Shown here one piece after another: positions 3,276-57,175 of a stretch of 64,000 nucleotides of DNA. The notes below the pieces were generated by a model that saw only the letters and a list, made by a program, of their open reading frames with translations, made no database searches and was not told the origin of the DNA. The stretch is from Eledone cirrhosa (Eukaryota): positions 114,638,001 to 114,702,000 of the forward strand of contig OZ024745.1 of assembly GCA_964016885.1 (NCBI GenBank), written 5' to 3'. A program made the translations under genes and the position numbers. Numbering within the stretch: the stretch's first letter is position 1; each line of letters begins with the position of its first letter.

Positions 3276-3407
3276 TATTACTATATATATATATATATAT
3301 CAGACAACACTCGCCTCCTATATATATATATATATATATATACATTTATATATATATATGCTTCAAAAATGTAATATATGTTTGTTTTCAAATTCACTTT
3401 AGCTCTA

Positions 3408-3572
3408 ATAATTGTTTCTACTTTAGGCACCAGTGCATTACTGGTACTTTATTTTATCGACCCCGTGAGGATGAAAGGCAAAGTCAACCTCGGCGGAATT
3501 TGAACTCAGATCGTAAAGGGAGGTAACTATGCTGGAAAGCATGGCGTCCGACCCTCTACCGATACTGCCAAA
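3408..3572 (-). mobile_element. tRNA-derived SINE, family 1 (Meta-domain-like core)
   Basis: A box TGGCAGTATCGG, B box GAGTTCAAATTCC, core gactttgcctttcatcc...gggtcgataaaataaagtaccag. Confidence 0.9.
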
Positions 3573-6573: not shown

Positions 6574-6628
<55 letters not shown>

Positions 6629-6714
6629 TATGCATACTCCAGTCCTACAAATTGTAGAGTGCTTCTTATCCGATATCTGCATTGCTTTATTGTACTACAA
6701 TAAAACTCACCTCC

Positions 6715-6765
<51 letters not shown>

Positions 6766-6895
6766 ATATGTAGGAGGTGAGTTTTATTGTAGTACAATAA
6801 AGCAATGCAGATATCGGATAAGAAGCACTCTACAGTTTGTAGGACTGGAGTATACATAATATATAAGAACAAAAGATGGTTAAAAGAGTTCCATG

Positions 6896-6966
6896 TATTT
6901 TAGTATGCGCATTTCAAAAACAAATATCATCATGCAATAATATTTGTGTTTTCATCAGATAAAACA
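6896..6966 (-). ncRNA. Type I hammerhead motif (inverted copy)
   Basis: Reverse complement of the 7128-7198 motif, with one stem I mismatch next to the cleavage site. Confidence 0.7.
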
Positions 6967-7127
6967 GGAAGACATGATATGAAGGTTAAAAAACACTTGT
7001 GGATAGTGCAGTTTTAAATCAACATATAAAAATTTTCATTTAATCCAGAATTGTTGTTTAATCCAGATATGTTGATTTAAAACTGCACTATCCACAAGTG
7101 TTTTTTAACCTTCATATCATGTCTTCC

Positions 7128-7198
7128 TGTTTTATCTGATGAAAACACAAATATTATTGCATGATGATATTTGTTTTTGAAATGCGCATAATAAAATA
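7128..7198 (+). ncRNA. Type I hammerhead ribozyme motif
   Basis: tgttttat-CTGATGA-aaacacaaatattatt/gatgatatttgtttt-GAAA-T-GCGC-ATA-ataaaata. Confidence 0.85.
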
Positions 7199-7256
7199 CA
7201 TGGAACTCTTTTAACCATCTTTTGTTCTTATATATTATATATATATATATGTATAC

Positions 7257-7370
<114 letters not shown>

Positions 7371-11230: not shown

Positions 11231-11267
<37 letters not shown>

Positions 11268-11269
<2 letters not shown>

Positions 11270-11458
11270 CGAAGGAATTGTGGTAAGGAACCAGATGGAT
11301 CATAACGCACCAGAGTACTCAATACTTAGGGTAGTAGAGTGGGTAATAGGAAAAAGTATGACCCCGACGGCAGAGCTCAAGCCGTTTCGACGGCTATTTC
11401 TGGAGTCCAGAAATAGCCGTCGAAACGGCTTGAGCTCTGCCGTCGGGGTCATACTTTT

Positions 11459-11462
<4 letters not shown>
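11268..11462 (-). mobile_element. Snap-back palindromic element in (TA)n carrying the 3' half of a hammerhead (family G, copy 1)
   Basis: Perfect ~55-bp arms around ctggagtccag. Contains GAAAC-ggc...gcc-GTC-ggggtcat. A ~80-bp unique tail ends in (TA)n. Confidence 0.85.
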
Positions 11463-11497
<35 letters not shown>

Positions 11498-11574
11498 ATT
11501 TTTTTTTTGTGGTGCAATTTAGAGATAGACATATTCTATGAAAAACATAGAGCTGTCAGGTTTGATTAATTTTG

Positions 11575-14158: not shown

Positions 14159-14338
14159 CTGGAGAAAAATAAGCTGTGTTCCACCATATGGGTACATGCA
14201 TACATTGGTAGCTGATTTTTGCTATATTGATAACTGTACTTATTATATCGATAACTGTATTACTGATATATTGGTAAATGAATAGTCGCTATATTGATAG
14301 CTATATAGAAAAAAAAAACATTAATTTCTTTTAACAAT

Positions 14339-14523
14339 GGTGGATTGGCAGTATCGATAGAGAGTCGGACGCCATGCTTTCCAGCATAGTTACGTCCCTT
14401 TACGATCTGAGTTCAAATCCCGCCGAGGTTAACTTTGCCTTTCATCCTTACGGGGTCGATAAAATAAAGTACCAGTAATGTACTGGGTAATTACTGGCCT
14501 TGTGCCAAAAAGTAGAAACAATT
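14339..14523 (+). mobile_element. SINE family 1, young copy with 18-bp TSD
   Basis: attaatttcttttaacaa at 14320 and 14521. Confidence 0.92.
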
Positions 14524-14574
14524 AATTTCTTTTAACAAAGCTCAAAGGTTCAATATTTCTAGAAGTAAAAAAGA

Positions 14575-14987: not shown

Positions 14988-15164
14988 ACATTTAATATAG
15001 AAAAACTGTTTCATTCGAAGGAAATCATCGGGGCTTTTTTCCTGATGATTTCCTTCGAATGAAACAGTTCTAGTCCCGTAGACGCCATTTCTATATTAAA
15101 AATGTATACTCTGCTATGTATTGAGTACCTTTCTTACTGTGGTGACCCCCGATTGATCCCGGGA

Positions 15165-15168
<4 letters not shown>
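14988..15168 (+). mobile_element. Palindromic hammerhead-core element between (TA)n tracts
   Basis: CTGATGA-tttccttcgaat-GAAAC at 15042-15065, with an inverted copy at 15004-15032. Outer IR tttaatatagaaa / tttctatattaaa. Confidence 0.65.
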
Positions 15169-15584
<416 letters not shown>

Positions 15585-16688: not shown

Positions 16689-17100
<412 letters not shown>

Positions 17101-20040: not shown

Positions 20041-21140
20041 GATTGGCGTAGAAGACATTGGAAACATTTGAAAGTGGAAACGTCTGCGTCCAAACGCAAA
20101 TGTCCCTAATAATACTTTCTTTATTAACCACAAGGGTTTTATGTCCCTAATAATGTCTATCAATATACAGTAATCCCACTTTGTTTGAACTTCTGTAAAA
20201 TATCTGAAAAAAAAAGAGAGAAGTAGTGGCCATCGGCTCCTTAATGTAATGGTTAAGATATGCTCCCGGCATCCGACAGATGCGGCGTTCGATTTCTTGT
20301 TCAATATTTTCCATTTCTAGGGGTACCTGATTTTTCTCAACTATTATTTATACAGATCGACTATTATTATCGACATTTGTGTTGAACACACAAATTTCAG
20401 GTATATAGATATATATATATATATAATATATATAGATATATAGATAGATGGATAGATAGACACGCTCAAATATATGTATATCTGTGTATGTGTGTGTATG
20501 TATACATTTCCATATATATATATATATATATATACACTAATCTATTTGTTATGAAAAGAAATGGTTATCACTCATTTAAATTCTGAGGTCATTGTTTGTG
20601 TTTTCGCTTCCTCTTACTATGTCTTCCTCCTCCACCACGACCACCACCACAGCCAACACCAACACCACCACCACCATAGCAGTACTTCGAACTTTCTTTC
20701 GTTGTCTTTTGTGGTATTTTTCGTGCTACTCTGAACCATCACGTGTAGCCAGCTGTGATGGCGGCAGTTGGTGGTGGACGGATGAAGAGAGTGTTATAAT
20801 GAGATGTTGTAAGGATGAGGTATAAGAGAAAGAGAGTGACAACAGTATTATGAATTTTCCTACGTCATACTAATATGGAATAGACCTTTCTGTTTTGTCA
20901 TTGGAATAGCAAACACCCACGCTGTGACGTTATTTTTATCTTCGCAAGGAACTTCCCTTGTTTTGACGTCAATTACCATATAAGGTATTGGAATTCCTTC
21001 AGTGAGAGAATACCGCGAAGCTTCGTCGATTTTGGAGGAGGGACTCTTTACTTTTTCAAACAACTTTTCTGCGCATGCTTATCTGTGTTCGTTTGAAAGT
21101 CAAACTACTAGGAAGCAACTTTAAGCATTTCATAGCCATA

Positions 21141-22845: not shown

Positions 22846-23199
22846 CACAATGGTGAACCAGTTTTTCCATGGGGTTCTCTGTCATCACTATTTTCATTGT
22901 GTCCGTCTCCATCATTCCTCAAGCTATACCTCCAGAACTAATTGAATTCAGTACAATGTACGTATACCGAGTTTGTATCGAATCGGCAGTGCCCCTCGGT
23001 AGCACTGCTAGGCCTAGAAATTATCCATGATTCTCAGACCGAAAGTCCTCCGGAACCGATTAATCAATTCATTCTAGTCAACGCCTAGATTTTCCCCGAG
23101 AACGTCATCACTCTTTCTTAGAAGTCCTCTATAGAGACATGCCTGACAAAATCAGGACACACCAGTTTATTGTTTAAGAATGTCTGTAGATGCCGCAAC

Positions 23200-23990
23200 A
23201 TCAGCGCATATCTGCGCACCAATGGCCACTGCTGAGACCGCCGCGTAGAAGTTGACAGCAAGTGGACCACCTGATCAGTGAAATGTCTCCCTTCCTCAAG
23301 AAGCGAAAGAGGAGACGGTTCGACCTGGTCACGCGAAAACTAGGGCAAGATACGATGGACTTGTCTCTCCAGGTAGCGAGTTGCAAGCCCACCGACTTGT
23401 CCAGATTGATTTTTGCCCATGTCTCCGCCTCGTATTCTTTTAGAACGGTGCCAATCCAACCCGGTCCGTCAGCTACCTATTTGAGGTTTTGTTGCTACGT
23501 CACGCCGCTGTCACACGAGGCCATCGAACGGCTTTCGTTCATTCGTGTCTTAAAGTATGTTTTAGCTCTGATAATGCAACATTCGTGTTTTGTAAAGAAA
23601 AAATCATCGAGGGTCATTGCGCTGTGGTTGTTCCATATCCACATGCGGGGTTTCCTGTCGGTACCTGTAAGACAGTTAGAGACGTCTGAGCAGGTTTGCG
23701 ATGTTTTCGCATCCCATTTCCCTATTGGCTAGTCCTACACAGTAACATTATGTGTCTAAGATACACTTGAAATCCTCAACTAGCTCTGATGATCTGGATG
23801 TTCCCAGGAAGGCTTCTAGAAGCCTGAAGAAATATGATCGCTCTGTCACCAATCTAAAACCACCTCTTTCGCTACCGCTCACGTTCAGCAGCACCAACCT
23901 TCCTTCCGGATCCAGGAAGATCGTACTTACTTCGAGATCCAGACCTTTCTAGAACAGCACTATCACCCAGACTCTCGCTTCTGACAGACC
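23200..23990 (+). pseudogene. Degraded GC-richer coding remnant, possibly a Tx1/L1-type ORF1
   Basis: Non-repetitive ORFs 23262-23732 and 23752-23952 (LPSGSRKIVLTSRSRPF resembles the region before an ORF1 zinc knuckle). Weak similarity only. Confidence 0.3.
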
Positions 23991-24484: not shown

Positions 24485-24673
24485 GGGCGGTGAATTGGCA
24501 GTATCGGTAGAGGGTTGGACGCCATGCTTTCTAGCATAGTTACGTCCCTTTACAGTCTGAGTTCAAATCCCGCCGAGGTTAACTTTGCCTTTCATCCTTA
24601 CGGGGTCGATAAAATAAAGTACCAGTAATGTACTGGGTAGTTGCTGGCCTTGTGCCTAAAGTAGAAACAATTA
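24485..24673 (+). mobile_element. SINE family 1 with TSD
   Basis: attattaggatttaaa on both sides. Confidence 0.92.
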
Positions 24674-26434
24674 TTAGGATTTAAACTGAAATTCACCACG
24701 CCCTCGGGAAATTTCAATTTGAATGTTCTGAAAGTTATCGAGTCCGTCCACACTAAAAGTCTGCCAGGCGGTGTTTTATGTTCTATGACACCCACATCTT
24801 TTGTTTTAATTGTATTGTTGTAGATAACTTCCTCCAGCAGCTCTTTCAAACAACCGTGAAGTTGATGCAGGGGAACCGGGCAGGTGTTTGTTGGTTTTGT
24901 CGTTGCTGTTGTTGCTCTTGTACATTTTTTATTTGTTTTTTTTTTAATTTTTGTTTGTTTGTTTTTACCTTTTCTTTTAGCGGTGTTGTAGTTGTGAGTA
25001 TTGGTTATGTTGTGGTGATTCCATCTTATGCGTTTTACTTAGTCTACTTACAGAGTGTGCGTTGGTTGGTATTTGTATGAACTTTTAGGGGAAGTTTAGG
25101 CTGCTCATATCCATGGTTAATGTTCTTTTGCTGAGTTACGCTCTATCATATAATATGGATCCTTTATCACAAGTTATAAATGAAGTCTCTTAGTATGCAG
25201 CAATTTATATAGGAACTTTATGTAAGTAGTTGAACAAGTGTTATATATCAAGAAGAGGAACACTTAATGTTATGAAAGTAGAGTTAAATATATTTATATT
25301 TCAGTTTGGGATTTGCGTTAAAGCATAATATTAATAGTTTCGGATGGGCGAGAATATAAATTGTGCCTAAAATCATCAAACAGACGCTGACATGCATTTT
25401 CTCATTCACATGTAAAGTGGCGAATGCACCGTTATATTTATCTGCGATGTAATTTGTATTCAATAAAAAAAATCTACGAACTATTATTATTTCCAAGAAC
25501 TGAAAAAAGGGAATATTCATTTTCTGATGAAATTCCCAAAAAGAATATAATTTTAGCCCACGAAGAGATAAAAAGAACATTCGCTTAGATTTTACTATTC
25601 AAAGCGGCCAAAAAAATCATATTCATTCGACCCGTGAATAAATACAAATATGTGTTTACATTTCAAATAATCCAATAATTAGTGTGTATACATTAATAAT
25701 TATTAATTAACCACGTTGCAAGGAATTCACTGTTATGACCAATTCGGTTTAGTTTTTGAATGTATTCACTAGAAATAGCAATAATACTTTGTTTTGAAAC
25801 CCATCAAGACAATTGCAAATTTTCTGCCCACGAATTAGCGAAAAGAAAAGGTGTTTACATTTCTTTACATGACAGTGCAATGCTGAAATTCTATCGAATT
25901 ATTTAAGGATATACTTTGCAATACATTCCAAATAATCCGATGCAAGCTATCGTGACATAAATTTAGTCGAGCTGACTTATGGACCTAACGAGGAGCTATT
26001 TTGAGCATTCCTGTTGTCCCGCCCGTATCATTCTATGTATTCATATACATATACTCTCACAGTTTGTGATTTAATACGCACGCTCACACGTACAGCTCTG
26101 TGTACAAAACGGTATTTTCCCTTTCAGCCAGACGCGTTCGTTCAACCACCATTTAAAACTAGATTATCTTACACAAAACGCCAGCATCAACAGTTTTCCT
26201 AGAGATGGCGACATGAATGAACCTATTTTTTCTCTCAAAAAAAAAACTTTTTTTGCTTCCGCCACTACACGTCTCCCCAATCTTTCAATTTCTTCTTTAA
26301 TTTTTCATTCTATTTTCTAATGAAGGACTAGCGTCTTAAACGTTAAGACTCTTTTCCTACTATATCATCATAAAACTAATAATATATTTCCTCATTGTAC
26401 TGTGCGGCTTGCTTTGTTATTTCTGTTTGCATTT

Positions 26435-28514: not shown

Positions 28515-28689
28515 AATATACATCTTTCTCTTTTTCCCCTTTCTTTTTTAGAAGAAGAAGAAGAAGAAATCGACTGTGTTCAGACCTGAAGAGGTTGGTT
28601 TAAATATCCAAGATTTACTGTACATCATCACTACATCGTGAATTAAGAGCCCGTGGATGTCACATTGATAGATAGATAGATAGATAGAT

Positions 28690-29939
28690 GTGTTTCTTTA
28701 TTAGCCACAGGGGCACAAAAGAAGGGAACAATTACAAAGGGGGGAGTTTACATACAATAAAAACGTGTAAAATGTTATCACAATTGTAAATTAAAAGTTA
28801 ATCGATTTTCCCCAATAGGGGGAGACAGTTCATATGGGTAGCACATACCCCCGAAAAAAATGTACAACCCTCATCTCCAGGAGTACGAAGAGTTTGTACC
28901 CCTTTCCTCTCTTCCTCTTTTTCCTCAACCTACAGGCTGATATAGAGAGAAGGCCCATTCACTCGGGCCATTCTCGCCACTTTCACCCACCTTTCATAAA
29001 ACTTGCTGGGGTACAGCACTTCTCTCTCCATCCTGACTCTTCTTCCAAGTGGTATTTGAAAAAAAGAACCAGTTGTTGGCCGGAGAGAAAGGTGTCTGAC
29101 CTCAGCCCTTTTAACCTATTCCACCATACAACCTCTTTCGCCATAGCTATCACACAAAGGAAAACCGCCTCTCCTTCGTTTTTGAAGGAGGGTGGCGGTT
29201 TGATCATGACAATGGACTCGGTGGTCAACTGGATTGGTCCCACCCGCGACAATAGTCGTTCTACATAGCTCCACAGGTCGGTAACGCCCGGGCAGTGTAT
29301 GAATGCGTGCGCGACGGTTTCTTCGTCTCGCACGCATCTCGGACAGATCTTTTTCGAAGGGTCCCTGCCCGGGCGCCCATGTCTGTAGAGCTTGTCTCGA
29401 ACTGGTAGAGCTCCTCGGTAGCACTGCCAGGCCAGGGACTTTTGGAAGTTGTCCATCGGTCCCGGACGGAAGGTCCTACCGAACAGACTGGACATTTTGT
29501 CTTCCTCCACGCCTAGAGTTTCTCCGAGCGCGTCGTCGCACTTAATGCGGATCAACCCTCTATAGAATGACGAAGTGGAGTCTCCACTGATCGCCGGGTC
29601 CGCCTGCCAGAGGGCTATGAGCGCCTGAGCACATTCGATGTGCCAGTCGCCCATTTTCCTCGGTCTTTTCTTGACCAAGGACTGCAGCTCGGTCAGCGAG
29701 ACGAGTCGTGGCAAGGCTCGCCTCACGAACGGGGCCCACACCGGTTGTCCGGTGAGGAATACGTAGAGATGCCGCAGCCTGAGCGCGTGTTTGCGCATCG
29801 TCAGCCACGGCATCTCCAGCCCTCCGTTGGAAGGGTGTTGGCAGCAGATGGATCTTCTCACCAAAGGAGCCCGCTTCTTCCAAAGGAATTGGAAGAGCGC
29901 GCGCTCCATTTTGGTGAGCGTTTTGGCTGGACAAGACAC
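28690..29939 (-). mobile_element. Tx1/L1-like LINE 3' fragment A (RT thumb, CCHC zinc region, 3' UTR)
   Basis: ORF 28983-29939: FQFLW..GGLEMP..GALPVRDKL..CPRC..EETVAHAFIHC. AATAAA then (TATC)n. Confidence 0.9.
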
Positions 29940-29997
<58 letters not shown>

Positions 29998-29998
<1 letters not shown>

Positions 29999-30597
29999 TT
30001 CTTTATTTGCCACAAGGGCGCACAAGAAAAGGGGACAATACAAAGACATGCCGGGGATTTTATATACAGTCGTGTAAAAAATATAAAAACAAACAATTAC
30101 AGCAATCGAAATCCCCAATAGGGGGGAAGCACCACAAATGGGTTGTTTAATACCCCGTCGATAGAACAACCCTCAACTCCAGGAGCGCGTTGTGCAAGTG
30201 CTCCTTTCTTCCTTTTGCTCTCTTCTTTAACCTACAGGCTTATAAACAGAGAAGGCCCAATCACGCGGGCCATTTTCGCTTCATTCACCCACCTTTCAGT
30301 AAATTTACTGGGGTGCAGTGCCTCTCTCTCCACCCTGATTCTCCTTCTAAAGTGATACTTAAAGAAGGGAATCAATTGTTGTCCGGAGAGAAAGGAATCT
30401 GTCTTCAGTCCTCTCAATCTCGTCCGCCATATAACTTCTTTCACCATAGCCACTGTACAGAGGAAAACCGCTCTCTTTCGTTTTTGAAAGAGGCTGGCGG
30501 TTTGATCCTTACTATGGACTCGGCAGTCAACTGGATTTGTCCCATACGCGACAGCAGTTGTTCTGCATAGTTCCACAGGTCGGTTACGCCCGGGCAG
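29998..30597 (-). mobile_element. Tx1/L1-like LINE 3' fragment B
   Basis: CPGVTDLWNYAEQLLSRMG...RWVNEAKMARVIGPSLFISL*. (GATA)n on both sides. Confidence 0.88.
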
Positions 30598-30685
<88 letters not shown>

Positions 30686-30686
<1 letters not shown>

Positions 30687-31647
30687 TGTTTCTTTTATTT
30701 GCCACCAGGGCATCAAAAGTGGGACAAGTACAAAGGGGGGAGTTTACACAAAAAGGCGCCCTCAATAAGGAGGAGGCAATAACAAAATATAAAAATAAAA
30801 TAAAATATAACAAAAAATAAAATTTGTAACAAAATCCTCAATAGAGAGGAGGCGCCTTGGGGGGTCGCACACACCCCCGAAAAAGAGAGGGGGTGCTCCC
30901 TCGTTCCTTCCTCCTTTCCACCTACAGGCTTATGTAAAGAGAAGGCTCATTCACACGGGCCATTCTCGCCACTTTCACCCACCTTTCATAAAAACGACTG
31001 GGGTGGAGCACCTCTCTCTCCATCCTGATCCTTCTTCCGAAATGATATCGGAAGAAACGGACCAGTTGTTGGCCAGAGAGAAAGGTGCCTGACCTCAGTC
31101 CTTTCAGACGCGTCCACCATACAACCTCTTTCGCCATGGCTATTACGCACAGAAACACCGCCTCTGCTTCATCTTTGAAGGGGGGAGGCGGCTTGATCAT
31201 TACAATAGACTCGGTGGTCAACCGGATCGGTCCCACCCTTGACAGCAGTTGTTCGACATAGCCCCACAGATCGGCTACGCCCGAGCAGTGTACCAATGCG
31301 TGTGCAACGGTTTCCTCGTCGCACACGCATCTGGGACAGATCTTTTTGGCGGGGTCCCTACCCGGGCGCCCGTGTCTGTAGAGCCTTTCTCGAACGGGTA
31401 AAGCCCCTCGGTAGCACTGCCAGGCCAGGGACTTCTGGAAGTTGTCCATAGGTCCCGGGCTGAATGTCCTACCGAACAGGCTGGCCAGTTCGTCCTCCTC
31501 CATGTCTAGGGCTTCTCCGAGGGCGTCGTCGCACCTGCTGCGTACCAGCCCTCTATAGAATGTTGCGGTGGAGTCTCCACTGATAACCGGATCCGCCTGC
31601 CAGAGGGCGGTGAGCGCCTGGGCACACTCAGTGTGCCAGGCGCCCAG
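30686..31647 (-). mobile_element. Tx1/L1-like LINE 3' fragment C
   Basis: ORF 30922-31503 is homologous to A but has a distinct 3' UTR. (GATA)n flanks. Confidence 0.9.
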
Positions 31648-31665
31648 TTAGATAGATAGATAGAT

Positions 31666-31990
31666 ATGTTTCTTTATTAGCCACAGGGGCACAAAAGAAG
31701 GGGACAAATACAAAGGGGGAAGTTTACATACAATAAAAACGTGTAAAATGTTATCACAAATACAATTTAAAAATTAGTCGATTTTCCCCAATAGGGGGAG
31801 ACATTACATATGGGTAACACATACCCTCGAAAAAAAAATGTGCAACCCTCATCTCCAGGAGTACGAAGAGTTTGTACTCCTTTCCTCACCTCCTCTTTTT
31901 CCTCAACCTACAGGCTGATATAGAGAGAAGGCCCATTCACTCGGGCCATTCTCGCCACTTTCACCCACCTTTCATAAAACTTGCTGGGGG
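31666..31990 (-). mobile_element. Tx1/L1-like LINE 3' fragment D (same subfamily as A)
   Basis: 3' UTR nearly identical to 28690-29010. Confidence 0.88.
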
Positions 31991-32025
31991 TAGATACATT
32001 TCTTAGACAGATAGATAGATAGATA

Positions 32026-32171
32026 TATTTCTTTATTTGCCACAAGGGCACACAAGAAAAGGGGACAATACAAAGACACATGCCGGGGATTTTACATACA
32101 GTCGTGTAAAAATATTGAAACAAACAATTACAACAATCGAAATCCCCAATAGGGGGGAAGCGCCACAAATG
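32026..32171 (-). mobile_element. Tx1/L1-like LINE 3' fragment E (same subfamily as B)
   Basis: Nearly identical to 29998-30141. (GATA)n flanks. Confidence 0.88.
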
Positions 32172-32220
<49 letters not shown>

Positions 32221-33147: not shown

Positions 33148-33376
33148 CACACACATATATATATATATATATATGTGTGTGTGTATGTATATATATATAT
33201 ATATATACATATGTGTGTATGTGTATATATATATATACATATGTGTGTGTGTGTGTGTGTACGTACCTATATACATATATAGGTACGAACACACATACCT
33301 GTATGTTTCCGCATGCCTATGTTTGTGTGTAAGTATATGTGTATGTAAGTGTGTATATATATATATATATATATAT

Positions 33377-33724
<348 letters not shown>

Positions 33725-34868: not shown

Positions 34869-34990
34869 TATACATATATATATATACACACATATATATA
34901 CACACACACATACATACACATACATACATATATACACACACACATACATACACATACACTCACACATATATACACACATACATTAATAAC

Positions 34991-35027
<37 letters not shown>

Positions 35028-35106
35028 GCAATAATAATAATAACGACAACAACAATAATAATATACATATTCATATATATATACACACACACGCACGCAC
35101 ATAAGC

Positions 35107-35148
<42 letters not shown>

Positions 35149-35156
35149 GATAGCAA

Positions 35157-38100
35157 CTAACAGTGCTGCGATCGAATGTGGCTTTTTAGCCCAGCCAATG
35201 ATCCAAAATGTCTTGCACAGAGTCGGCAACCAAAACATTTACTGGGAATAGTCGGCTGTGGTTGGAGTTCGTGTACTTTTGCATGTCGCTTGAGTCCTCC
35301 TGCTGATTTACATTCTCTACCACATGTTTGGCAAGCATGATGAGTAGCATCTCCAACAGCAGCCTGGTAGTCAACCACTGGTCTTACTTTATGACTGCGA
35401 AGATGACTTTCGAGTCCAGCTTTGCTTAGGCAGAGTCTCGCACAGACGCTGCATGTCAGAAACATAGGAGGACCCTCGCCGTCTGGAAGTGCAACAGCAA
35501 TACCCTTCCTCACGTCCCGCTTTACTTTCTCGTGTGCGATTCGAGATGCCTCAAAGGCAACTTTTCCCTCATATACAGTCTTTCTCCATTTATTACGATC
35601 AGCAGCAACATTTTCCCATGTATCAGCAGAGATGTTAGCGTCTCTCAGAGAGGCCTTCAAGGAATCCTTATACCTCTTTTTTGGTTTATGTGGCGGTCGT
35701 TTTCCTTTAACCAACTCTCCATAGAAGAGTTGTTTTGGTATTCTAGAATCCTTCATCCTGGCAAGGTGACCACTCCAACGGAGTCGCTGCTTAAGCACAA
35801 GAGCTTCTATACTGTCACACATAGAGCTTTCCAAAATCTCGACATCACTGATGTGGTCCCTCCAGTGAACGCCATGTATCCGTCTGAGACACATCTGATG
35901 GAAACGCTCCAATTGCTTAAGGTGGCGTCGATATGTGACCCAGGTCTCGCAGGCATAAAGAAGACAAGAGAGTACACATGCCCTGTACACCCTTACCTTT
36001 GTCCTCCTGCATATGTCTCGCCGACCCCAGAGTCGCCTTTCTAGCTTTCCGAAAGCATCACTTGCTTTCCTAATCCTAAGTGAGATTTCACTGTCAAGGT
36101 TGCCGTATCGATTGACAGTGCTTCCCAGGTAGACAAACTGATCAACCACTCCAAGTCGTTTGCCATACACATAGATGTTTGGTTCAGTGTACTGCCTACC
36201 AGGTGCAGGTTGGTACATGACGACGGTTTTCTTGAGACTGACAGTCAAACCCAGGGCAGTGCAAGCGTCAGAAAATACATTCAAAATGTGCTGCATATCA
36301 CTCTCTGTGTGCGCTACAAGATCGCAATCATCTGCATACAAGAGGTCTCTTATGACTGATGTAAATACTTTTGTCTTCGCAGCAAAGCGCCTGATGTTAA
36401 ATATGCTGCCTGAGGTTCGATATCGGATGTAAACACCATGCTCGCAATTCCTGAATGCAATACAGAAAACCATTGCAAAGTATATGGCAAACAGGGTCGG
36501 TGCTGGAATATCCCCCTGTTTCACTCCATTTTTTACTGAGATAGGCTCCGACATGTTACCTCCGACATTAACCCAAGCCTTCATGTCGTCATGGAAAGAC
36601 CTAACTAAAGCAAGGAACTTATCAGGGCAACCAAGTTTCTGGAGAACCTTCCATAATGCATCTCTGTTGACAGTATCGAAAGCCTTTGTCAGATCGACAA
36701 AAACCTGATACAGATCCAAGCCCTGTTCAATGCACTTCTCCTGGAGCTGTCTAGCTGAGAAGATCATATCAGTAGTGCCGCGTCCAACACGAAAACCAGA
36801 TTGACTTTCAGGAAGGACACAATCTGCAATGTGTGTCAGCAGACGGTCCAGAAGCACCCTACATAAAACTTTCCCCACGACAGAAAGCAATGATATACCT
36901 CTGTAGTTCCCACAATCATTCCTGTTACCCTTTCCCTTGTACAAGACCACCATTACTGCATCTCTCCAGTCCTCAGGCACGGATTCATTAGCCCATATCC
37001 TTCCAAACAGAGAGTGAAGATGTTGCAGGAGTCTCTCACCACCATATTGTAGGAGCTCAGCATGTATGCCATCCATACCTGGAGATCTTCCACTGTTCAG
37101 CTTCGAAATAGCCACTGCAACCTCCACAAGTGTCGGAGGCTCTGCGAGAGCTACTTTCACAGGACTTTCCGGAATGAGATTGAGGAAATCTTCACTGACG
37201 ACAGACGGCTGATTCAAAAGATCATCAAAGTGCTCTCGCCACCTTCGTAGAATTCCCTGTGAGTCACGAAGAAGTTCTTTGCCATCCCTGCTGCGAATCG
37301 GTGTCACCAGAGAAGAAGACGGTCCATAAACCTCACGCAAGAGACTGTACAACAGCTTTGTGTTATTGCAATCAGACGCAGTTTGTATCTCACCAGCCTT
37401 CTCACTCCACCACTGATCCTTCATCTGAGAAAGACTCCGCCTAACACGTGATTTTACATCCCTGAGCTCCTCATGCAACGTATTCCTCTCCTGTGGTCTT
37501 GCCGTCAAGTAGCGTGACAGAGCGCGCCTCTTATCAGCCAACAAGTCATCTATATGCACATCTTTCTCATTAAACCAGTCCTGATGTTTTCTCTGCACCA
37601 ATCCCAGAACACGTCTGCCTACATCATAAACCGACTTTTTAAGGGTCGGCCAATCCTCACCAAGATCTGCAGCCTGCATCTCTTCTTCCAATGTCCTCTT
37701 CACATTTTTATCCTTAAGACGAGCAGCATTCAATCTTTTGGGCAGGGTAACACCAGGAGCCCGGATTTTACGTTTGGTGATTAGATTCACTTTTGCGCGT
37801 ACCAGGCGGTGGTCCGTCCAGCACTCAGCTCCACGAAGAACACGAACACACCGCACATCCTGTCTGTCACGCATCCTGACTAGGACGTAGTCCAAAAGAT
37901 GCCATTCCTTAGATGCAGGATGCATCCATGTGGTCTTGAATTTGTTCTTTTGTTGGAACATCGTGTTGGTAACACACAGATCCAGCTCCTCACACATCTG
38001 CAGCAAGAGCATACCATTGCTGTTACACTTTCCCACCCCATGCCTTCCGATTACATTCCATGTGTTAAAATCCCTACCCACTCTAGCATTAAAGTCACCA

Positions 38101-38411
38101 AGCACGATGACTTTGTCTGCCTGAGGGATATTTCTTAAAACACCTTTCAAGGCATGGTAAAAGGACAGTTTTTCTTCATCGACAGAATTCATAGTTGGAG
38201 CATACACACTCACCAGGGTAGCATATCTTCCCTTGTCCAGCGGAACTCTCATGGACATAAGACGCTCACTAATCCCCACTGGGAATTCTTCTAATTTATT
38301 CACCAGTACAGTCTTAACAGCAAATCCTACCCCAGCCTCTCTTCTGGTTCCTTCATCTCTTCCTTTCCAGAAGAATGTATATTCTCTCACAAAATTCCGT
38401 AAGATGACCAT
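35157..38411 (-). CDS. RTE polyprotein (APE endonuclease, reverse transcriptase, 3 x C2H2); N-terminus continues across one frameshift to ~38700
   Basis: 1084-aa open frame. The upstream frame encodes [10 protein letters not shown]...[13 protein letters not shown], and the frameshift lies at ~38385-38395. Confidence 0.92.
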
Positions 38412-38696
38412 CTCCAGCTAACCTCGTCTCAGACAAAGCCACGATGTCAAGATCGTAACGTCGAAGCTCCTTCGCAACAAGAGCGGTCCTTCGTTCAGGA
38501 CGCTCCAAAGAATCCCTGTCAAGCAGCGTCCGTACGTTCCAGCAGCCAAGACTAAATGCCCTGTTTGGCTCTATTACAATGGCACGATGACGGGCGGGCC
38601 CAGGTTGTGATAACTTGGGGCCCCTGCCCTTATTGCCAATGATCTCTTTTGTTCCAGAACCCAAATTGGCAATTATCTCGTTTACATTGTTCTGGA

Positions 38697-38700
<4 letters not shown>
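35157..38700 (-). mobile_element. Near-full-length RTE (BovB-like) non-LTR retrotransposon
   Basis: APE motifs [36 protein letters not shown] motifs [37 protein letters not shown]2H2 fingers at the C-terminus. Confidence 0.97.
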
Positions 38701-38753
<53 letters not shown>

Positions 38754-38770
38754 CATACATACATACATAT

Positions 38771-38841
<71 letters not shown>

Positions 38842-39130
38842 TACATACATATATACATACATACATATATATATATACATATATATATACATATATACAT
38901 ACATATATATAAACATATATACATACATACATATATATATATACATATATATATACATATATACATACATATATATAAACATACACACACACATATATAT
39001 ATATATGAAAAAATGGGGAGAAGAATACTGCAGGTTGCACATGGATAACATGTAATAAAATGAGTCCCTCATCAGTGATTTGCCGACGATCATAGATATT
39101 TCATATATATATACATACATACATATATTG

Positions 39131-42151: not shown

Positions 42152-42218
<67 letters not shown>

Positions 42219-42248
42219 AGATCAAAAGATGGTTAAAGGAGTTCCATG

Positions 42249-42316
42249 TATTTTATTATGCGCATTTCAAAAACAAACATCATGCAATAATATTTGTGTT
42301 TTCATCAGATAAAACA
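42249..42316 (-). ncRNA. Type I hammerhead motif (inverted copy)
   Basis: Reverse complement of 42426-42496, with a 3-nt deletion in stem II. Confidence 0.8.
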
Positions 42317-42425
42317 GGAGAACATGATATGAAGGCTAAAAAACACTTGTGGATAGTGCAGTTTTAAATCAACATATCAACTGAACTATCCACAAGTGTT
42401 TTTTAGCCTTCATATCATGTTCTCC

Positions 42426-42496
42426 TGTTTTATCTGATGAAAACACAAATATTATTGCATGATGATGTTTGTTTTTGAAATGCGCATAATAAAATA
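42426..42496 (+). ncRNA. Type I hammerhead ribozyme motif
   Basis: tgttttat-CTGATGA-stem II-GAAA-T-GCGC-ATA-ataaaata. Confidence 0.85.
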
Positions 42497-42617
42497 CATG
42501 GTACTCCTTTAACCATCTTTTGATCTTATATTATGTATACTCCAGTCCTACAAACTGTAGAGTGCTTCTTATCCGATATCTGCATTGCTTTATTGTACTA
42601 CAATAAAACTCACCTCC

Positions 42618-42657
<40 letters not shown>

Positions 42658-47555: not shown

Positions 47556-48895
47556 GGCGGTGGATTGGCAGTATCGGTAGAGGGTTTGACGCCATGCTTT
47601 CCAGCATAGTTACGTCCCTTTACGATCTGAGTTCAAATCCCGCCGAGGTTGACTTTGCCTTTCATCCTTACGGGGTCGATAAAATAAAGTACCAGTAATG
47701 CACTGGGTAATTGCTGGCCTTGTGCCTAAAGTAGAAACAATTATTTTTTGGTGGATTGGCAGTATCGGTAGAGGGTTGGACGCCATGCTTTCCAGCATAG
47801 TTACGTCCCTTTACGATCTGAGTTCAAATCCCGCCGAGGTTGACTTTGCCTTTCATCCTTACGGGGTCGATAAAATAAAGTACCAGTAATGCACTGGGTA
47901 ATTGCTGGCCTTGTGCCTAAAGTAGAAACAATTATTTTTTGGTGGATTGGCAGTATCGGTAGAGGGTTGGACGCCATGCTTTCCAGCATAGTTACGTCCC
48001 TTTACGATCTGAGTTCAAATCCCGCCGAGGTTGACTTTGCCTTTCATCCTTACGGGGTCGATAAAATAAAGTACCAGTAATGCACTGGGTAATTGCTGGC
48101 CTTGTGCCTAAAGTAGAAACAATTATTTTTTGGTGGATTGGCAGTATCGGTAGAGGGTTGGACGCCATGCTTTCCAGCATAGTTACGTCCCTTTACGATC
48201 TGAGTTCAAATCCCGCCGAGGTTGACTTTGCCTTTCATCCTTACGGGGTCGATAAAATAAAGTACCAGTAATGCACTGGGTAATTGCTGGCCTTGTGCCT
48301 AAAGTAGAAACAATTATTTTTTGGTGGATTGGCAGTATCGGTAGAGGGTTGGACGCCATGCTTTCCAGCATAGTTACGTCCCTTTACGATCTGAGTTCAA
48401 ATCCCGCCGAGGTTGACTTTGCCTTTCATCCTTACGGGGTCGATAAAATAAAGTACCAGTAATGCACTGGGTATTTGCTGGCCTTGTGCCTAAAGTAGAA
48501 ACAATTATTTTTTGGTGGATTGGCAGTATCGGTAGAGGGTTGGACGCCATGCTTTCCAGCATAGTTACGTCCCTTTACGATCTGAGTTCAAATCCCGCCG
48601 AGGTTGACTTTGCCTTTCATCCTTACGGGGTCGATAAAATAAAGTACCAGTAATGCACTGGGTAATTGCTGGCCTTGTGCCTAAAGTAGAAACAATTATT
48701 TTTTGGTGGATTGGCAGTATCGGTAGAGGGTTGGACGCCATGCTTTCCAACATAGTTACGTCCCTTTACGATGTGAGTTCAAATCCCGCCGAGGTTGACT
48801 TTGCCTTTCATCCTTACGGGGTCGATAGAATAAAGTACCAGGAATGCACTGGGTAATTGCTGGCCTTGTGCCTAAAGTAGAAACAATTATTTTTT
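47556..48895 (+). repeat. Tandem array of 7 near-identical 191-bp SINE family 1 monomers
   Basis: Monomer starts at 47559, 47750, 47941, 48132, 48323, 48514 and 48705. Confidence 0.97.
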
Positions 48896-49204
48896 GTTGT
48901 CGTATGAAGTTTACACATACATCTAGAGACATATTACCTAACTGAAGTTCTTCCTCTGTTCTTCACCTATACATGCCCTCAATCGCCTTGACCAAACCTA
49001 TGAAACTCACAATATCTAGTCCCGACACGAAGCCGATGCAAAAACTATATAATGCCTTCAGAAAATGTTTGATGCAGAGACAAACTTAGTTCGTTCTGCA
49101 ATGATCGACCACTTTTTAGACTTCACATTATTCTTTATCGTTTCTTGATGAAACATATGCCTTCCGGTTTTGTTTAGGTGAATCATCAGCGATCCTTCTG
49201 TATG

Positions 49205-49854: not shown

Positions 49855-52800
49855 TACATGCACCAATATCGACATACCAGTAACATATTTACAGTATAGT
49901 GTTCACAGTACATACACCAATATCGACATACCAGTAACATATTTACAGTATTCACAGTACGTACACCAATATGGACATACCAGTAACATATTTACAGTAT
50001 ACAGTATTCACAGTACATACACCAATATGGACATACCAGTGACATATTTACAGTATACAGTATACACAGTACATACACCAATATGGACATACCAGTAACA
50101 TATTTACAGTATACAGTATTCACAGTACATACACCAATATCGACATACCAGTAACATATTTACAGTATTCACAGTACGTACACCAATATGGACATACCAG
50201 TAACATATTTACAGTATACAGTATTCACAGTACATACACCAATATCGACATACCAGTAACATATTTACAGTATTCACAGTACGTACACCAATATGGACAT
50301 ACCAGTAACATATTTACAGTATACAGTATTCACAGTACATACACCAATATGGACATACCAGTGACATATTTACAGTATACAGTATTCACAGTACATACAC
50401 CAATATCGACATACCAGTAACATATTTACAGTATATAGTGTTCACAGTACATACACCAATATGGACATACCAGTGACATATTTACAGTATACAGTATACA
50501 CAATACATACACCAATATCCACATACCAGTGACATATTTACAGTATACAGTGTTCACAGTACATACACCAATATGGACATACCAGTAACATATTTACAGT
50601 ATACAGTATACACAATACATACACCAATATGGACATACCAGTAACATATTTACAGTATACAGTGTTCACAGTACATACACCAATATGGACATACCAGTAA
50701 CATATTTACAGTATACAGTGTTCACAGTACATACACCAATATGGACATACCAGTAACATATTTACAGTATACAGTATTCACAGTACATACACCAATATGG
50801 ACATACCAGTAACATATTTACAGTATACAGTATACACAGTACATACACCAATATGGACATACCAGTGACATATTTACAGTATACAGTGTTCACAGTACAT
50901 ACACCAATATGGACATACCAGTAACATATTTACAGTATACAGTATTCACAGTACATACACCAATATGGACATACCAGTAACATATTTACAGTATACAGTA
51001 TACACAGTACATACACCAATATGGACATACCAGTGACATATTTACAGTATACAGTGTTCACAGTACATACACCAATATGGACATACCAGTAACATATTTA
51101 CAGTATACAGTATTCACAGTACATACACCAATATGGACATACCAGTAACATATTTACAGTATACAGTATACACAGTACATACACCAATATGGACATACCA
51201 GTAACATATTTACAGTATACAGTATTCACAGTACATACACCAATATGGACATACCAGTAACATATTTACAGTATACAGTGTTCACAGTACATACACCAAT
51301 ATGGACATACCAGTAACATATTTACAGTATACAGTGTTCACAGTACATACACCAATATGGACATACCAGTAACATATTTACAGTATACAGTATTCACAGT
51401 ACATACACCAATATGGACATACCAGTAACATATTTACAGTATACAGTATACACAGTACATACACCAATATGGACATACCAGTGACATATTTACAGTATAC
51501 AGTGTTCACAGTACATACACCAATATGGACATACCAGTAACATATTTACAGTATACAGTATTCACAGTACATACACCAATATGGACATACCAGTAACATA
51601 TTTACAGTATACAGTATACACAGTACATACACCAATATGGACATACCAGTAACATATTTACAGTATACAGTATTCACAGTACATACACCAATATGGACAT
51701 ACCAGTAACATATTTACAGTATACAGTATACACAGTACATACACCAATATCGACATACCAGTAACATATTTACAGTATACAGTATACACAGTACATACAC
51801 CAATATCCACATACCAGTGACATATTTACAGTATACAGTATTCACAGTACATACACCAATATGGACATACCAGTAACATATTTACAGTATACAGTGTTCA
51901 CAGTACATACACCAATATCGACATACCAGTGACATATTTACAGTATACAGTATACACAGTACATACACCAATATGGACATACCAGTGACATATTTACAGT
52001 ATACAGTGTTCACAGTACATACACCAATATGGACATACCAGTGACATATTTACAGTATACAGTGTTCACAGTACATACACCAATATGGACATACCAGTGA
52101 CATATTTACAGTATACAGTATACACATTACATACACCAATATGGACATACCAGTGACATATTTACAGTATACAGTATACACAGTACATACACCAATATGG
52201 ACATACCAGTGACATATTTACAGTATACAGTGTTCACAGTACATACACCAATATGGACATACCAGTGACATATTTACAGTATAGTGTTCACAGTACATAC
52301 ACCAATATGGACATACCAGTGACATATTTACAGTATACAGTGTTCACAGTACATACACCAATATGGACATACCAGTAACATATTTACAGTATACAGTATA
52401 CACATTACATACACCAATATGGACATACCAGTGACATATTTACAGTATAGAGTATACACAGTACATACACCAATATGGACATACCAGTGACATATTTACA
52501 GTATACAGTGTTCACAGTACATACACCAATATGGACATACCAGTAACATATTTACAGTATACAGTGTTCACAGTACATACACCAATATGGACATACCAGT
52601 GACATATTTACAGTATACAGTGTTCACAGTACATACACCAATATGGACATACCAGTAACATATTTACAGTATACAGTATTCACAGTACATACACCAATAT
52701 GGACATACCAGTAACATATTTACAGTATACAGTATACACAGTACATACACCAATATGGACATACCAGTAACATATTTACAGTATACAGTATTCACAGTAC

Positions 52801-55800
52801 ATACACCAATATGGACATACCAGTAACATATTTACAGTATACAGTATACACAGTACATACACCAATATCGACATACCAGTAACATATTTACAGTATACAG
52901 TATACACAGTACATACACCAATATCCACATACCAGTGACATATTTACAGTATACAGTATTCACAGTACATACACCAATATGGACATACCAGTAACATATT
53001 TACAGTATACAGTGTTCACAGTACATACACCAATATCGACATACCAGTGACATATTTACAGTATACAGTATACACAGTACATACACCAATATGGACATAC
53101 CAGTGACATATTTACAGTATACAGTGTTCACAGTACATACACCAATATGGACATACCAGTGACATATTTACAGTATACAGTGTTCACAGTACATACACCA
53201 ATATGGACATACCAGTGACATATTTACAGTATACAGTATACACATTACATACACCAATATGGACATACCAGTGACATATTTACAGTATACAGTATACACA
53301 GTACATACACCAATATGGACATACCAGTGACATATTTACAGTATACAGTGTTCACAGTACATACACCAATATGGACATACCAGTGACATATTTACAGTAT
53401 AGTGTTCACAGTACATACACCAATATGGACATACCAGTGACATATTTACAGTATACAGTGTTCACAGTACATACACCAATATGGACATACCAGTAACATA
53501 TTTACAGTATACAGTATACACATTACATACACCAATATGGACATACCAGTGACATATTTACAGTATAGAGTATACACAGTACATACACCAATATGGACAT
53601 ACCAGTGACATATTTACAGTATACAGTGTTCACAGTACATACACCAATATGGACATACCAGTAACATATTTACAGTATACAGTGTTCACAGTACATACAC
53701 CAATATGGACATACCAGTGACATATTTACAGTATACAGTGTTCACAGTACATACACCAATATGGACATACCAGTGACATATTTACAGTATACAGTGTTCA
53801 CAGTACATACACCAATATCGACATACCAGTAACATATTTACAGTATACAGTATTTACAGTACATACACCAATATGGACATACCAGTGACATATTTACAGT
53901 ATATAGTGTTCACAGTACATACACCAATATGGACATACCAGTGACATATTTACAGTATACAGTATTCACAGTACATACACCAATATGGACATACCAGTGA
54001 CATATTTACAGTATACAGTATACACAGTACATACACCAATATGGACATACCAGTAACATATTTACAGTATACAGTATACACAGTACATACACCAATATCG
54101 ACATACCAGTAACATATTTACAGTATACAGTATTCACAATACATACACCAATATCGACATATCAGTGACATATTTACAGTATACAGTATACACAGTACAT
54201 ACACCAATATCGACATATCAGTGACATATTTACAGTATACAGTATTCACATTACATACACCAATATGGACATACCAGTGACATATTTACAGTATACAGTA
54301 TTCACATTACATACACCAATGTGGACATACCAGTGACATATTTACAGTATACAGTATACACAGTACATACACCAATATGGACATACCAGTGACATATTTA
54401 CAGTATACAGTATACACAGTACATACACCAATATGGACATACCAGTAACATATTTACAGTATACAGTGTTCACAGTACATACACCAATATGGACATACCA
54501 GTAACATATTTACAGTATACAGTATTCACATTACATACAGCAATATGGACATACCAGTGACATATTTACAGTATACAGTATTCACAGTACATACACCAAT
54601 ATGGACATACCAGTAACATATTTACAGTATACAGTGTTCACAGTACATACACCAATATGGACATACCAGTAACATATTTACAGTATACAGTATACACAGT
54701 ACATACACCAATATGGACATACCAGTGACATATTTACAGTATACAGTATTCACATTACATACAGCAATATGGACATACCAGTGACATATTTACAGTATAC
54801 AGTATTCACAGTACATACACCAATATCGACATACCAGTAACATATTTACAGTATACAGTATACACAATACATACACCAATATGGACATACCAGTAACATA
54901 TTTACAGTATACAGTGTTCACAGTACATACACCAATATGGACATACCAGTAACATATTTACAGTATACAGTGTTCACAGTACATACACCAATATGGACAT
55001 ACCAGTAACATATTTACAGTATACAGTATTCACATTACATACAGCAATATGGACATACCAGTGACATATTTACAGTATACAGTATTCACAGTAGATACAC
55101 CAATATGGACATACCAGTAACATATTTACAGTATACAGTGTTCACAGTACATACACCAATATGGACATACCAGTGACATATTTACAGTATACAGTATTCA
55201 CAGTACATACACCAATATGGACATACCAGTGACATATTTACAGTATACAGTATTCACAGTACATACACCAATATGGACATACCAGTGACATATTTACAGT
55301 ATACAGTGTTCACAGTACATACACCAATATCGACATACCAGTGACATATTTACAGTATACAGTATACACAATACATACACCAATATGGACATACCAGTAA
55401 CATATTTACAGTATACAGTATACACAGTACATACACCAATATCGACATACCAGTAACATATTTACAGTATACAGTATACACAATACATACACCAATATGG
55501 ACATACCAGTAACATATTTACAGTATACAGTGTTCACAGTACGTACACCAATATGGACATACCAGTAACATATTTACAGTATACAGTGTTCACATTACAT
55601 ACAGCAATATGGACATACCAGTGACATATTTACAGTATACAGTATTCACAGTACATACACCAATATGGACATACCAGTGACATATTTACAGTATACAGTA
55701 TTCACAGTACGTACACCAATATGGACATATCAGTGACATATTTACAGTATACAGTATTCACAGTACATACACCAATATCCACATACCAGTGACATATTTA

Positions 55801-57175
55801 CAGTATACAGTGTTCACAGTACATACACCAATATGGACATACCAGTGACATATTTACAGTATACAGTGTTCACAGTACATACACCAATATCGACATATCA
55901 GTGACATATTTACAGTATTCACAGTACATACACCAATATGGACATACCAGTGACATATTTACAGTATACAGTATTCACAGTACGTACACCAATATGGACA
56001 TACCAGTGACATATTTACAGTATACAGTATTCACAGTACATACACCAATATCGACATACCAGTGACATATTTACAGTATACAGTGTTCACAGTACATACA
56101 CCAATATGGACATACCAGTGACATATTTACAGTATACAGTGTTCACAGTACATACACCAATATGGACATACCAGTGACATATTTACAGTATACAGTATAC
56201 ACAGTACATACACCAATATCGACATATCAGTGACATATTTACAGTATACAGTATACACAGTACATACACCAATATGGACATACCAGTGACATATTTACAG
56301 TATACAGTATACACAGTACATACACCAATATGGACATACCAGTGACATATTTACAGTATACAGTGTTCACAGTACATACACCAATATGGACATACCAGTG
56401 ACATATTTACAGTATACAGTATACACAGTACATACACCAATATGGACATACCAGTAACATATTTACAGTATACAGTGTTCACAGTACATACACCAATATG
56501 GACATACCAGTAACATATTTACAGTATACAGTATTCACAGTACATACACCAATATGGACATACCAGTGACATATTTACAGTATACAGTATTCACAGTACA
56601 TACACCAATATGGACATACCAGTGACATATTTACAGTATACAGTATACACAGTACATACACCAATATGGACATACCAGTAACATATTTACAGTATACAGT
56701 GTTCACAGTACATACACCAATATCCACATACCAGTGACATATTTACAGTATACAGTATTCACAATACATACACCAATATCGACATACCAGTGACATATTT
56801 ACAGTTTACAGTATTCACAATACATACACCAATATGGACATACCAGTGACATATTTACAGTATACAGTGTTCACAGTACATACACCAATATGGACATACC
56901 AGTAACATATTTACAGTATACAGTGTTCACAGTACATACACCAATATCCACATACCAGTGACATATTTACAGTATACAGTGTTCACAGTACATACACCAA
57001 TATGGACATACCAGTAACATATTTACAGTATACAGTATTCACAGTACATGCACCAATATCGACATACCAGTGACATATTTACAGTATATAGTGTTCACAT
57101 TACATACACCAATATGGACATACCAGTGACATATTTACAGTATATAGTGTTCACAATATGCGACATTTACAGCAT
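49855..57175. repeat. 56-bp satellite array, ~130 monomers, with 49- and 54-bp variants
   Basis: Unit acatacaccaatatggacataccagt(a/g)acatatttacagtatacagt(a/g)t(t/a)cacagt. Confidence 0.98.

Follow-up and report, generated by a model that had tools for sequence, protein, structure and literature searches.

A head-to-tail stack of Tx1-type LINE 3' ends at (GATA)n repeats in Eledone cirrhosa: evidence for probable local targeting

In a 64-kb stretch of Eledone cirrhosa DNA (GenBank assembly GCA_964016885.1, contig OZ024745.1, positions 114,638,001 to 114,702,000; hereafter the window, numbered from its first letter), (GATA)n runs alternate on the plus strand with five related segments between 28667 and 32220. 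These segments, designated copies A to E, are the 3' ends of a long interspersed nuclear element (LINE) which is Tx1-type by protein score; all are on the minus strand, 5'-truncated to 1247, 601, 960, 323 and 144 bp, and have a common 3' end with different 5' extents (Table 1). Judging from the position of the repeats relative to the copies, it is very probable that this element targets GATA at this locus. A previous reading made from the letters alone (the sequence-only reading) had described five 5'-truncated minus-strand copies in three subfamilies, and its coordinates, strand, sizes and subfamilies all match the values recomputed here. Blastn detected no further copy with a 3' end in the window.

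GATA repeats and the junctions of the stack

Among the microsatellite runs of the window, 174 of which were counted, the GATA-class runs of at least three units number six, and all six lie at junctions of the stack (5, 14, 22, 4, 4, and 12 units), while no TATC run was found on the plus strand of the window. No host DNA separates the five copies. No element 3' end stands before the outermost 5' run (12 units), and therefore the repeat is target DNA and not only a tail. Orientation alone, the same in all five copies, corresponds to p = 0.06. The proposal of the sequence-only reading, a strand-specific family that targets GATA, regenerates its target and builds stacks, is thus supported at one locus. 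A degenerate GATA run without an element, at approximately 20430-20462, is either too imperfect as a target or an unused site.

In the element sense, every copy ends in AATAA(A)AGAAA, followed by two nucleotides and then by (T/C)ATC-TATC. The two-nucleotide spacer is CA in A, C, and D, TA in E, and TC in B, there continuous with the repeat. The junction register AAGAAA-NN-(T/C)ATC is the same in five of five copies, which would occur in 0.4% of cases if the four phases were equally likely, and poly(A) is absent from all five. The earlier statement that the copies run directly into (TATC)n without poly(A) is therefore correct as to poly(A), but a spacer in fixed register intervenes. The 3' untranslated region (UTR) of copy A terminates in AATAAAGAAA and that of copy C in AATAAAAGAAA. 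The junction pattern GATANNTTTCTT occurs five times (in B, C, D, E, and the 9-nt piece described below) against 0.25 expected, with A differing by one base; none of 100 shuffled sequences reached five occurrences, a control which is post hoc because the pattern was derived from the junctions themselves.

A perfect repeat stands at the 5' junction of A, B, C, and E. At that of D there are only about 1.5 TATC units, then a 9-nt piece, then four units, so that the GATA-type repeat claimed previously for each 5' junction is a perfect run in four of five and minimal in the fifth. The 9-nt piece (31997-32005) shows the junction register of the five copies and may be a sixth, minimal insertion. The alternative that it is D's own upstream sequence was rejected: it needs about 4-5 changes in 14 nt beside 82 identical coding bases, and for this reason we take the piece as a separate insertion. 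Flank and template could be compared at four 5' junctions, for which a longer sibling copy reveals the template, and they overlap there by 0-2 nt. No target-site duplication (TSD) in unique sequence was found, the longest word shared by the unique 60-nt flanks of the stack being 5 nt; the runs of 16-18 nt at C/D (18 nt) and D/E appear to be of about TSD size. Open reading frames (ORFs) running through the repeats as IYLS runs were discarded as artefacts, (TATC)n having no stop in that frame.

All five copies have a hairpin at a distance of about 125 nt from the 3' end. It shows one change on both sides of the stem (C-G to U-A), in copy C, and its covariation term is unfavourable (+1.64), both on five related rows only. 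This hairpin may be an RNA recognition signal, which we offer as a lead. The 3' UTR of copy C (30689-30921, minus strand) contains a second similar copy of the hairpin; the terminal T-rich and A-rich stretches of copy C are each shifted in such a way that a stem enclosing the poly(A) signal stays possible.

Table 1. Features of the stack in the window
Feature	Position	Strand	Description
(GATA)5 + GAT	28667..28689	+	outer flank, 3' end of copy A
Copy A	28693-29939, 1247 bp	-	ORF2, 1010 bp (late reverse transcriptase thumb region to stop at 28930-28932), and 237-bp 3' UTR
3' UTR hairpin	28810..28821 (copy A)	-	about 125 nt from 3' end; in five of five copies
zf-RVT zinc knuckle (CPRC...H..HC), copy A	29271..29441	-	Pfam, E 2e-7
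(GATA)14 + GA	29940..29997	+	between 5' end of A and 3' end of B
Copy B	29998-30598, 601 bp	-	367 bp of ORF2 end and 234-bp 3' UTR
(GATA)22	30599..30686	+	between B and C
Copy C	30689-31648, 960 bp	-	uninterrupted 241-codon ORF2 end and 233-bp 3' UTR
zf-RVT zinc knuckle, copy C	about 31264-31434	-	Pfam
TA(GATA)4, 18 nt	31649..31666	+	between C and D
Copy D (A subfamily)	31669-31991, 323 bp	-	82-84 bp of ORF2 end and 239-bp 3' UTR
Putative sixth micro-insertion, 9 nt	31997..32005	-	resembles last bases of the element; GATA unit 31993-31996 on its 3' side
GACA(GATA)4	32006..32025	+	at 3' end of E
Copy E (B subfamily)	32028-32171, 144 bp	-	3' UTR only
(GATA)12	32172..32220	+	outer flank, 5' end of E

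Subfamilies and probable independence of the insertions

The copies fall into three subfamilies, with DNA identities of 94.1% for A/D and 95.8% for B/E and of 67-81% for all other pairs (A/C 81.0%, A/B 75.8%, B/C 70.0%). The ratio of nonsynonymous to synonymous divergence (dN/dS) is 0.137 between C and A (dS 0.59, 240 codons) and 0.254 between C and B (dS 0.74, 120 codons). Judging from these values, the three subfamilies diverged under purifying selection, as working elements. The low ratios mean that the source lineages number at least three, all of them inserted into one repeat, on one strand and in one register.

Between A and D, 0 of 82 coding positions and 17 of 237 UTR positions differ (Fisher p 0.008, or 0.05-0.18 when the first one or two bases of D are counted). 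This confinement of the differences to the 3' UTR is better explained by separate source elements than by a duplicate that has decayed. The junction bases also differ within both pairs, A/D and B/E. Independent insertion, as the sequence-only reading had it, is thus favoured by the dN/dS values, the UTR-only differences and the junction bases, with tandem duplication, which that reading had set aside too readily, staying a minor rival (see below).

Protein relationships of the element

Copy A encodes 318 codons up to its frameshifted end, caused by a single 1-nt deletion near 29047, and copy C an unbroken 241 codons; copy B has a single 1-nt deletion near 30471. The Pfam domain zf-RVT, which is not unique to Tx1, scored above the curated cut-off in both proteins scanned (A and C). 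A search for longer proteins gave three matches among 3394 candidates (P0003-P0005), 58-63% identical to copy A, and the window copies form a clade with them with a support of 100/100. The nearest named relative is P0005, the hypothetical protein Ahia01_000009400 of the octopod Argonauta hians (58% identity). From these matches, the lineage of the element is probably from an octopod cephalopod.

Because no window copy reaches the reverse transcriptase (RT) core, P0004, which is 62% identical to copy A, was used as its proxy. P0004 scores 279 bits against Tx1L (YTX2_XENLA, P0183) and 174 bits against human L1 ORF2, while Tx1L itself scores 178 bits against a comparable endonuclease-less L1 chain. 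It is 34-41% identical to named Tx1-type proteins versus 27% to the RTE-type RT of the window. Full-length relatives at 44-48% identity to P0004 carry apurinic endonuclease-like (APE; PF03372), RT and zf-RVT domains in approximately 1150 aa. A quick RT tree placed the proxy group (Shimodaira-Hasegawa-like approximate likelihood ratio 100) outside the vertebrate Tx1 group (88); it was built from 31 chosen rows of 238 proteins, none of them from L1, with a very long RTE outgroup, and cannot test Tx1 monophyly. The element is accordingly Tx1-type by protein score through its proxy; the Tx1/L1-like identity given previously stands in that form, formal clade membership being short of proven.

A relic at 22960-23990 (minus strand), old and internally deleted, belongs to the same Tx1-type lineage and retains endonuclease, linker, RT, and C-terminal pieces. 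It is 65-69% identical in DNA to A and C over approximately 160 bp, and its endonuclease-like piece lies at 23754-23990 (E about 1e-4). Other searches contributed little: Rfam gave no match at gathering score in the 64 kb, the ESM Atlas returned only generic RT and zf-RVT clusters, and a scan of GTDB genomes gave 34 pattern matches with no relative among them.

Proposed mechanism and alternative explanations

We consider it likely that the stack was formed by sequential target-primed insertions into (GATA)n, directed by endonuclease preference together with RNA pairing. Transcription of a source element would continue past its own AATAAA and enter the adjoining repeat. Since this signal ends 6 nt short of the repeat and metazoan transcripts are cleaved 10-30 nt downstream of it, the transcript is expected to finish with about 1-6 UAUC units, ahead of any poly(A). 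The ORF2 APE endonuclease would nick the GATA strand, and the freed ...GATA-3'OH would pair with UAUC of the RNA and prime RT, so that poly(A) is skipped. Pairing of the (UAUC)n RNA end with the nicked GATA strand would account for the absence of poly(A) and for the common orientation and register. After an early stop of RT, the second strand would be sealed inside the same (GATA)n run through 0-2 nt of microhomology, with repeat remaining on either side. Every new copy would thus be flanked by two usable targets, on which later insertions from other source elements could pile up head to tail, and subsequent slippage would alter the run lengths (4 to 22 units).

The two components are taken from other elements. 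Site specificity of APE-type LINEs is described only in the Tx1 and R1 clades (PMC6007223), and the Tx1L endonuclease recognises approximately 10 bp (PMC1919474); by analogy with these relatives, the endonuclease probably prefers the GATA strand. RNA-target pairing aids priming in I factor, R1Bm, and R2Ol (PMC6007223), and by analogy with such LINEs read-through (UAUC)n RNA probably helps by pairing. The sequence-only reading left endonuclease specificity and RNA-target pairing unseparated. It is unlikely, in our view, that a loosely specific endonuclease was combined with targeting that came almost wholly from a (UAUC)n tail pairing with nicked GATA DNA, even though such an RNA-guided choice would suit the constant register, the absence of poly(A) and the placement of AATAAA equally well. 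In B the repeat begins 2 nt nearer the end of the element, which pairing over a mismatch might produce, and microsatellite-like RNA at the 3' end has been proposed to act in RTE site selection (PMC6007223). However, those Tx1 and R1 elements that have been characterised owe their specificity to the endonuclease itself, and exchanging domains redirects them to another target (PMC1919474, PMC4494074). We attach far less probability to (TATC)n being simply a 3' tail made by the element itself, of the kind seen in RTE, CR1, and L2, with the stack resulting from passive accumulation in a repeat-rich region. Microsatellite tails are common among LINEs (PMC6007223, PMC9115989), the window is very repeat-rich, and passive accumulation has been proposed for Waldo-A and Waldo-B of Drosophila (PMC3812793); but host DNA is missing between the five copies, the outermost 5' run has no preceding element end, and the protein is like Tx1 and not RTE, CR1, or L2, RTE being the one of these three that was compared directly.

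Several points weigh against sequential insertion into a GATA target. The evidence comes from a single locus, to which no further genomic copy retaining its 3' end could be added; no copy extends to the endonuclease or ORF1 any more than to the RT core; the relic has no GATA nearby and, since its 3' end is lost, gives no test of targeting; the RNA end was deduced and not observed; and TSDs are unreadable inside a perfect repeat. The A/D coding test depends on where D starts, D-E repeats the order A-B (expected by chance in 6 of 30 orders), and A/D and B/E are equally diverged (17/319 versus 6/142, p 0.82), as a single duplication would give. The last two points would suit a partial tandem duplication of A-B into D-E, later trimmed by deletions, with three insertions instead of five. 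Such a history is very unlikely: it needs two deletions, of about 920 and 460 bp and both with an end in a short repeat, in addition to the micro-piece, while the A/D differences avoid the coding part and the junction bases differ in both pairs. Even then, three lineages would have targeted GATA. R2 elements and L1 chimeras provide examples of template jumping, and a single event in which RT copied the RNA of A and then jumped to the (UAUC)n ends of the B, C, D, and E RNAs would account for the head-to-tail order, the missing host DNA and the lack of a unique-sequence TSD. The inner repeats would then be RNA tails, and targeting would be shown by the outer junctions only. This, too, is highly improbable: it needs four jumps among five RNAs of three lineages up to 30% different, and two of the inner runs, at 14 and 22 units, are longer than the 1-6 units that the RNA should carry. 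With either duplication or template jumps, fewer independent events would be counted, yet insertion into GATA is still evident from the outer junctions.

Comparison with known elements

Microsatellite targeting by Tx1 elements, target regeneration and tandem stacking are already known. Published Tx1 targets are (TC)n, (TTC)n, (TTCC)n, and (TTTC)n (PMC4494074), and the repeat targets listed for LINEs are ACAY, AC, TC, TTC, and TAA (PMC3812793); a LINE was called microsatellite-specific when the target was present in >20% of the flanks of the family (PMC4494074). Apparently new are the choice of GATA/TATC as target, the occurrence in a cephalopod lineage, the stacking of several subfamilies and the constancy of the junction register. 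We found no Tx1 element with a GATA/TATC target in the literature searched; an entry in Repbase or Dfam or a description in a subscription paper is possible. 'GATA' and 'TATC' do not occur in the accessible main text of PMC4494074, whose figure labels and supplements may list more targets.

Kibi ((TC)n) and Koshi ((TTC)n), Tx1 elements of teleosts, resemble the window element in a Tx1-type ORF2 and in insertion into simple repeats (PMC4494074, PMC3812793). They differ in target, which is (TATC)n/(GATA)n for the window element. The RT of P0004 is 30-34% identical to Tetraodon Q76IM5, which we take to be one of the Kibi/Koshi deposits, and the two were not grouped together in the quick tree. Crocodilian Tx1 elements (Tx1-1_Crp, Tx1-2_AMi, and others) have tetranucleotide targets, (TTCC)n and (TTTC)n, and TATC is one base from TTTC, assuming that the published targets are given in the element sense (PMC4494074). 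Compared here by description only, they differ in that their target is called a preference, in their placement near Kibi/Koshi and in their vertebrate hosts (PMC4494074). Tx1L of Xenopus laevis, the named Tx1 prototype, has a site-specific APE endonuclease, and the likeness of the window element to it is by the score of P0004. However, Tx1L targets the Tx1D transposon and no microsatellite, is 31% identical to P0004 over 659 aa, and has an ORF2 of 1308 aa versus the approximately 1150 aa of the nearest full-length relatives of the window element.

Stacks resembling ours were described for SINEU-3 and Tx1-Mar, in which sequential head-to-tail insertions sandwich a duplicated target (PMC4494074); there, the target is Mariner and the insertions are mostly pairs of a non-autonomous short interspersed nuclear element (SINE), versus five LINE fragments of three lineages in the window. 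Waldo ((ACAY)n) and Mino ((AC)n) of the R1 clade, Dong ((TAA)n) and the telomeric TRAS1 and SART1 are also repeat-targeting, but they belong to other clades and use other repeats (PMC3812793, PMC1919474). The Argonauta hians protein is of the same lineage as the window copies; it is unannotated and was compared by protein alone. Papers on molluscs report L1-Tx1 as common and, in their accessible text, name no target (PMC13282606, PMC8967140, PMC11203168, PMC10294476), and O. vulgaris has 80 L1-Tx1 consensus families, 13 of which were recently active (PMC13282606). PMC9115989 contains no mention of Tx1.

Implications

How APE-type LINEs target microsatellites at the molecular level is described as poorly understood (PMC3812793). 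The new target, with its invariant register, the lack of poly(A) and a polyadenylation signal whose placement should give the RNA a copy of its own target, makes the question of endonuclease versus RNA directly testable in this element. Tx1 microsatellite targeting would extend from vertebrates to molluscs, and the L1-Tx1 families of octopus annotations may conceal site-specific elements. GATA markers from such genomes may have flanks in common and yield products from many loci. It is possible, although doubtful, that a cephalopod Tx1 lineage gained microsatellite specificity independently of the vertebrate Kibi/Koshi, kept (GATA)n across coexisting subfamilies with its own read-through (UAUC)n RNA setting the register, and makes and maintains a large share of octopod GATA microsatellites as self-renewing landing pads. 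If true, TC, TTC, TTTC, and TATC would form a natural series for mapping endonuclease loop sequence onto target, and the element would be a candidate integrase for GATA repeats.

Other repeats in the window

A near full-length LINE on the minus strand at approximately 35060-38680 has an open frame of at least 733 codons over 35801-38000 and looks young. Its 3' end lies at (TAA)n (34984-35063), and its 5' side adjoins (TA)/(ACAT)n (38699-39006). From its motifs, together with the low RT identity to the Tx1 proxy given above (27%), it is presumably of RTE type.

A SINE-like repeat of about 190 bp, with no match in Rfam, is dispersed at approximately 20 sites (e.g., 3390-3571, 14338-14528, and 24488-24693) and also forms a 7-copy head-to-tail array of 99% identity at 47559-48896, probably through recent tandem amplification. 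A 56-bp minisatellite occupies 7.2 kb (49944-57155; 129 copies, 95% matches). Four copies of a repeat of about 265 bp, approximately 92% identical and each bounded by (TA)n (11236-11499, 15164-15425, 16780-17051, and 33354-33605), are possibly a TA-targeting miniature inverted-repeat transposable element or similar. Finally, a repeat of about 600 bp at 6626-7295 and 42154-42655 shows internal inverted similarity with (TA)n at its ends, and its two copies are 86-98% identical.

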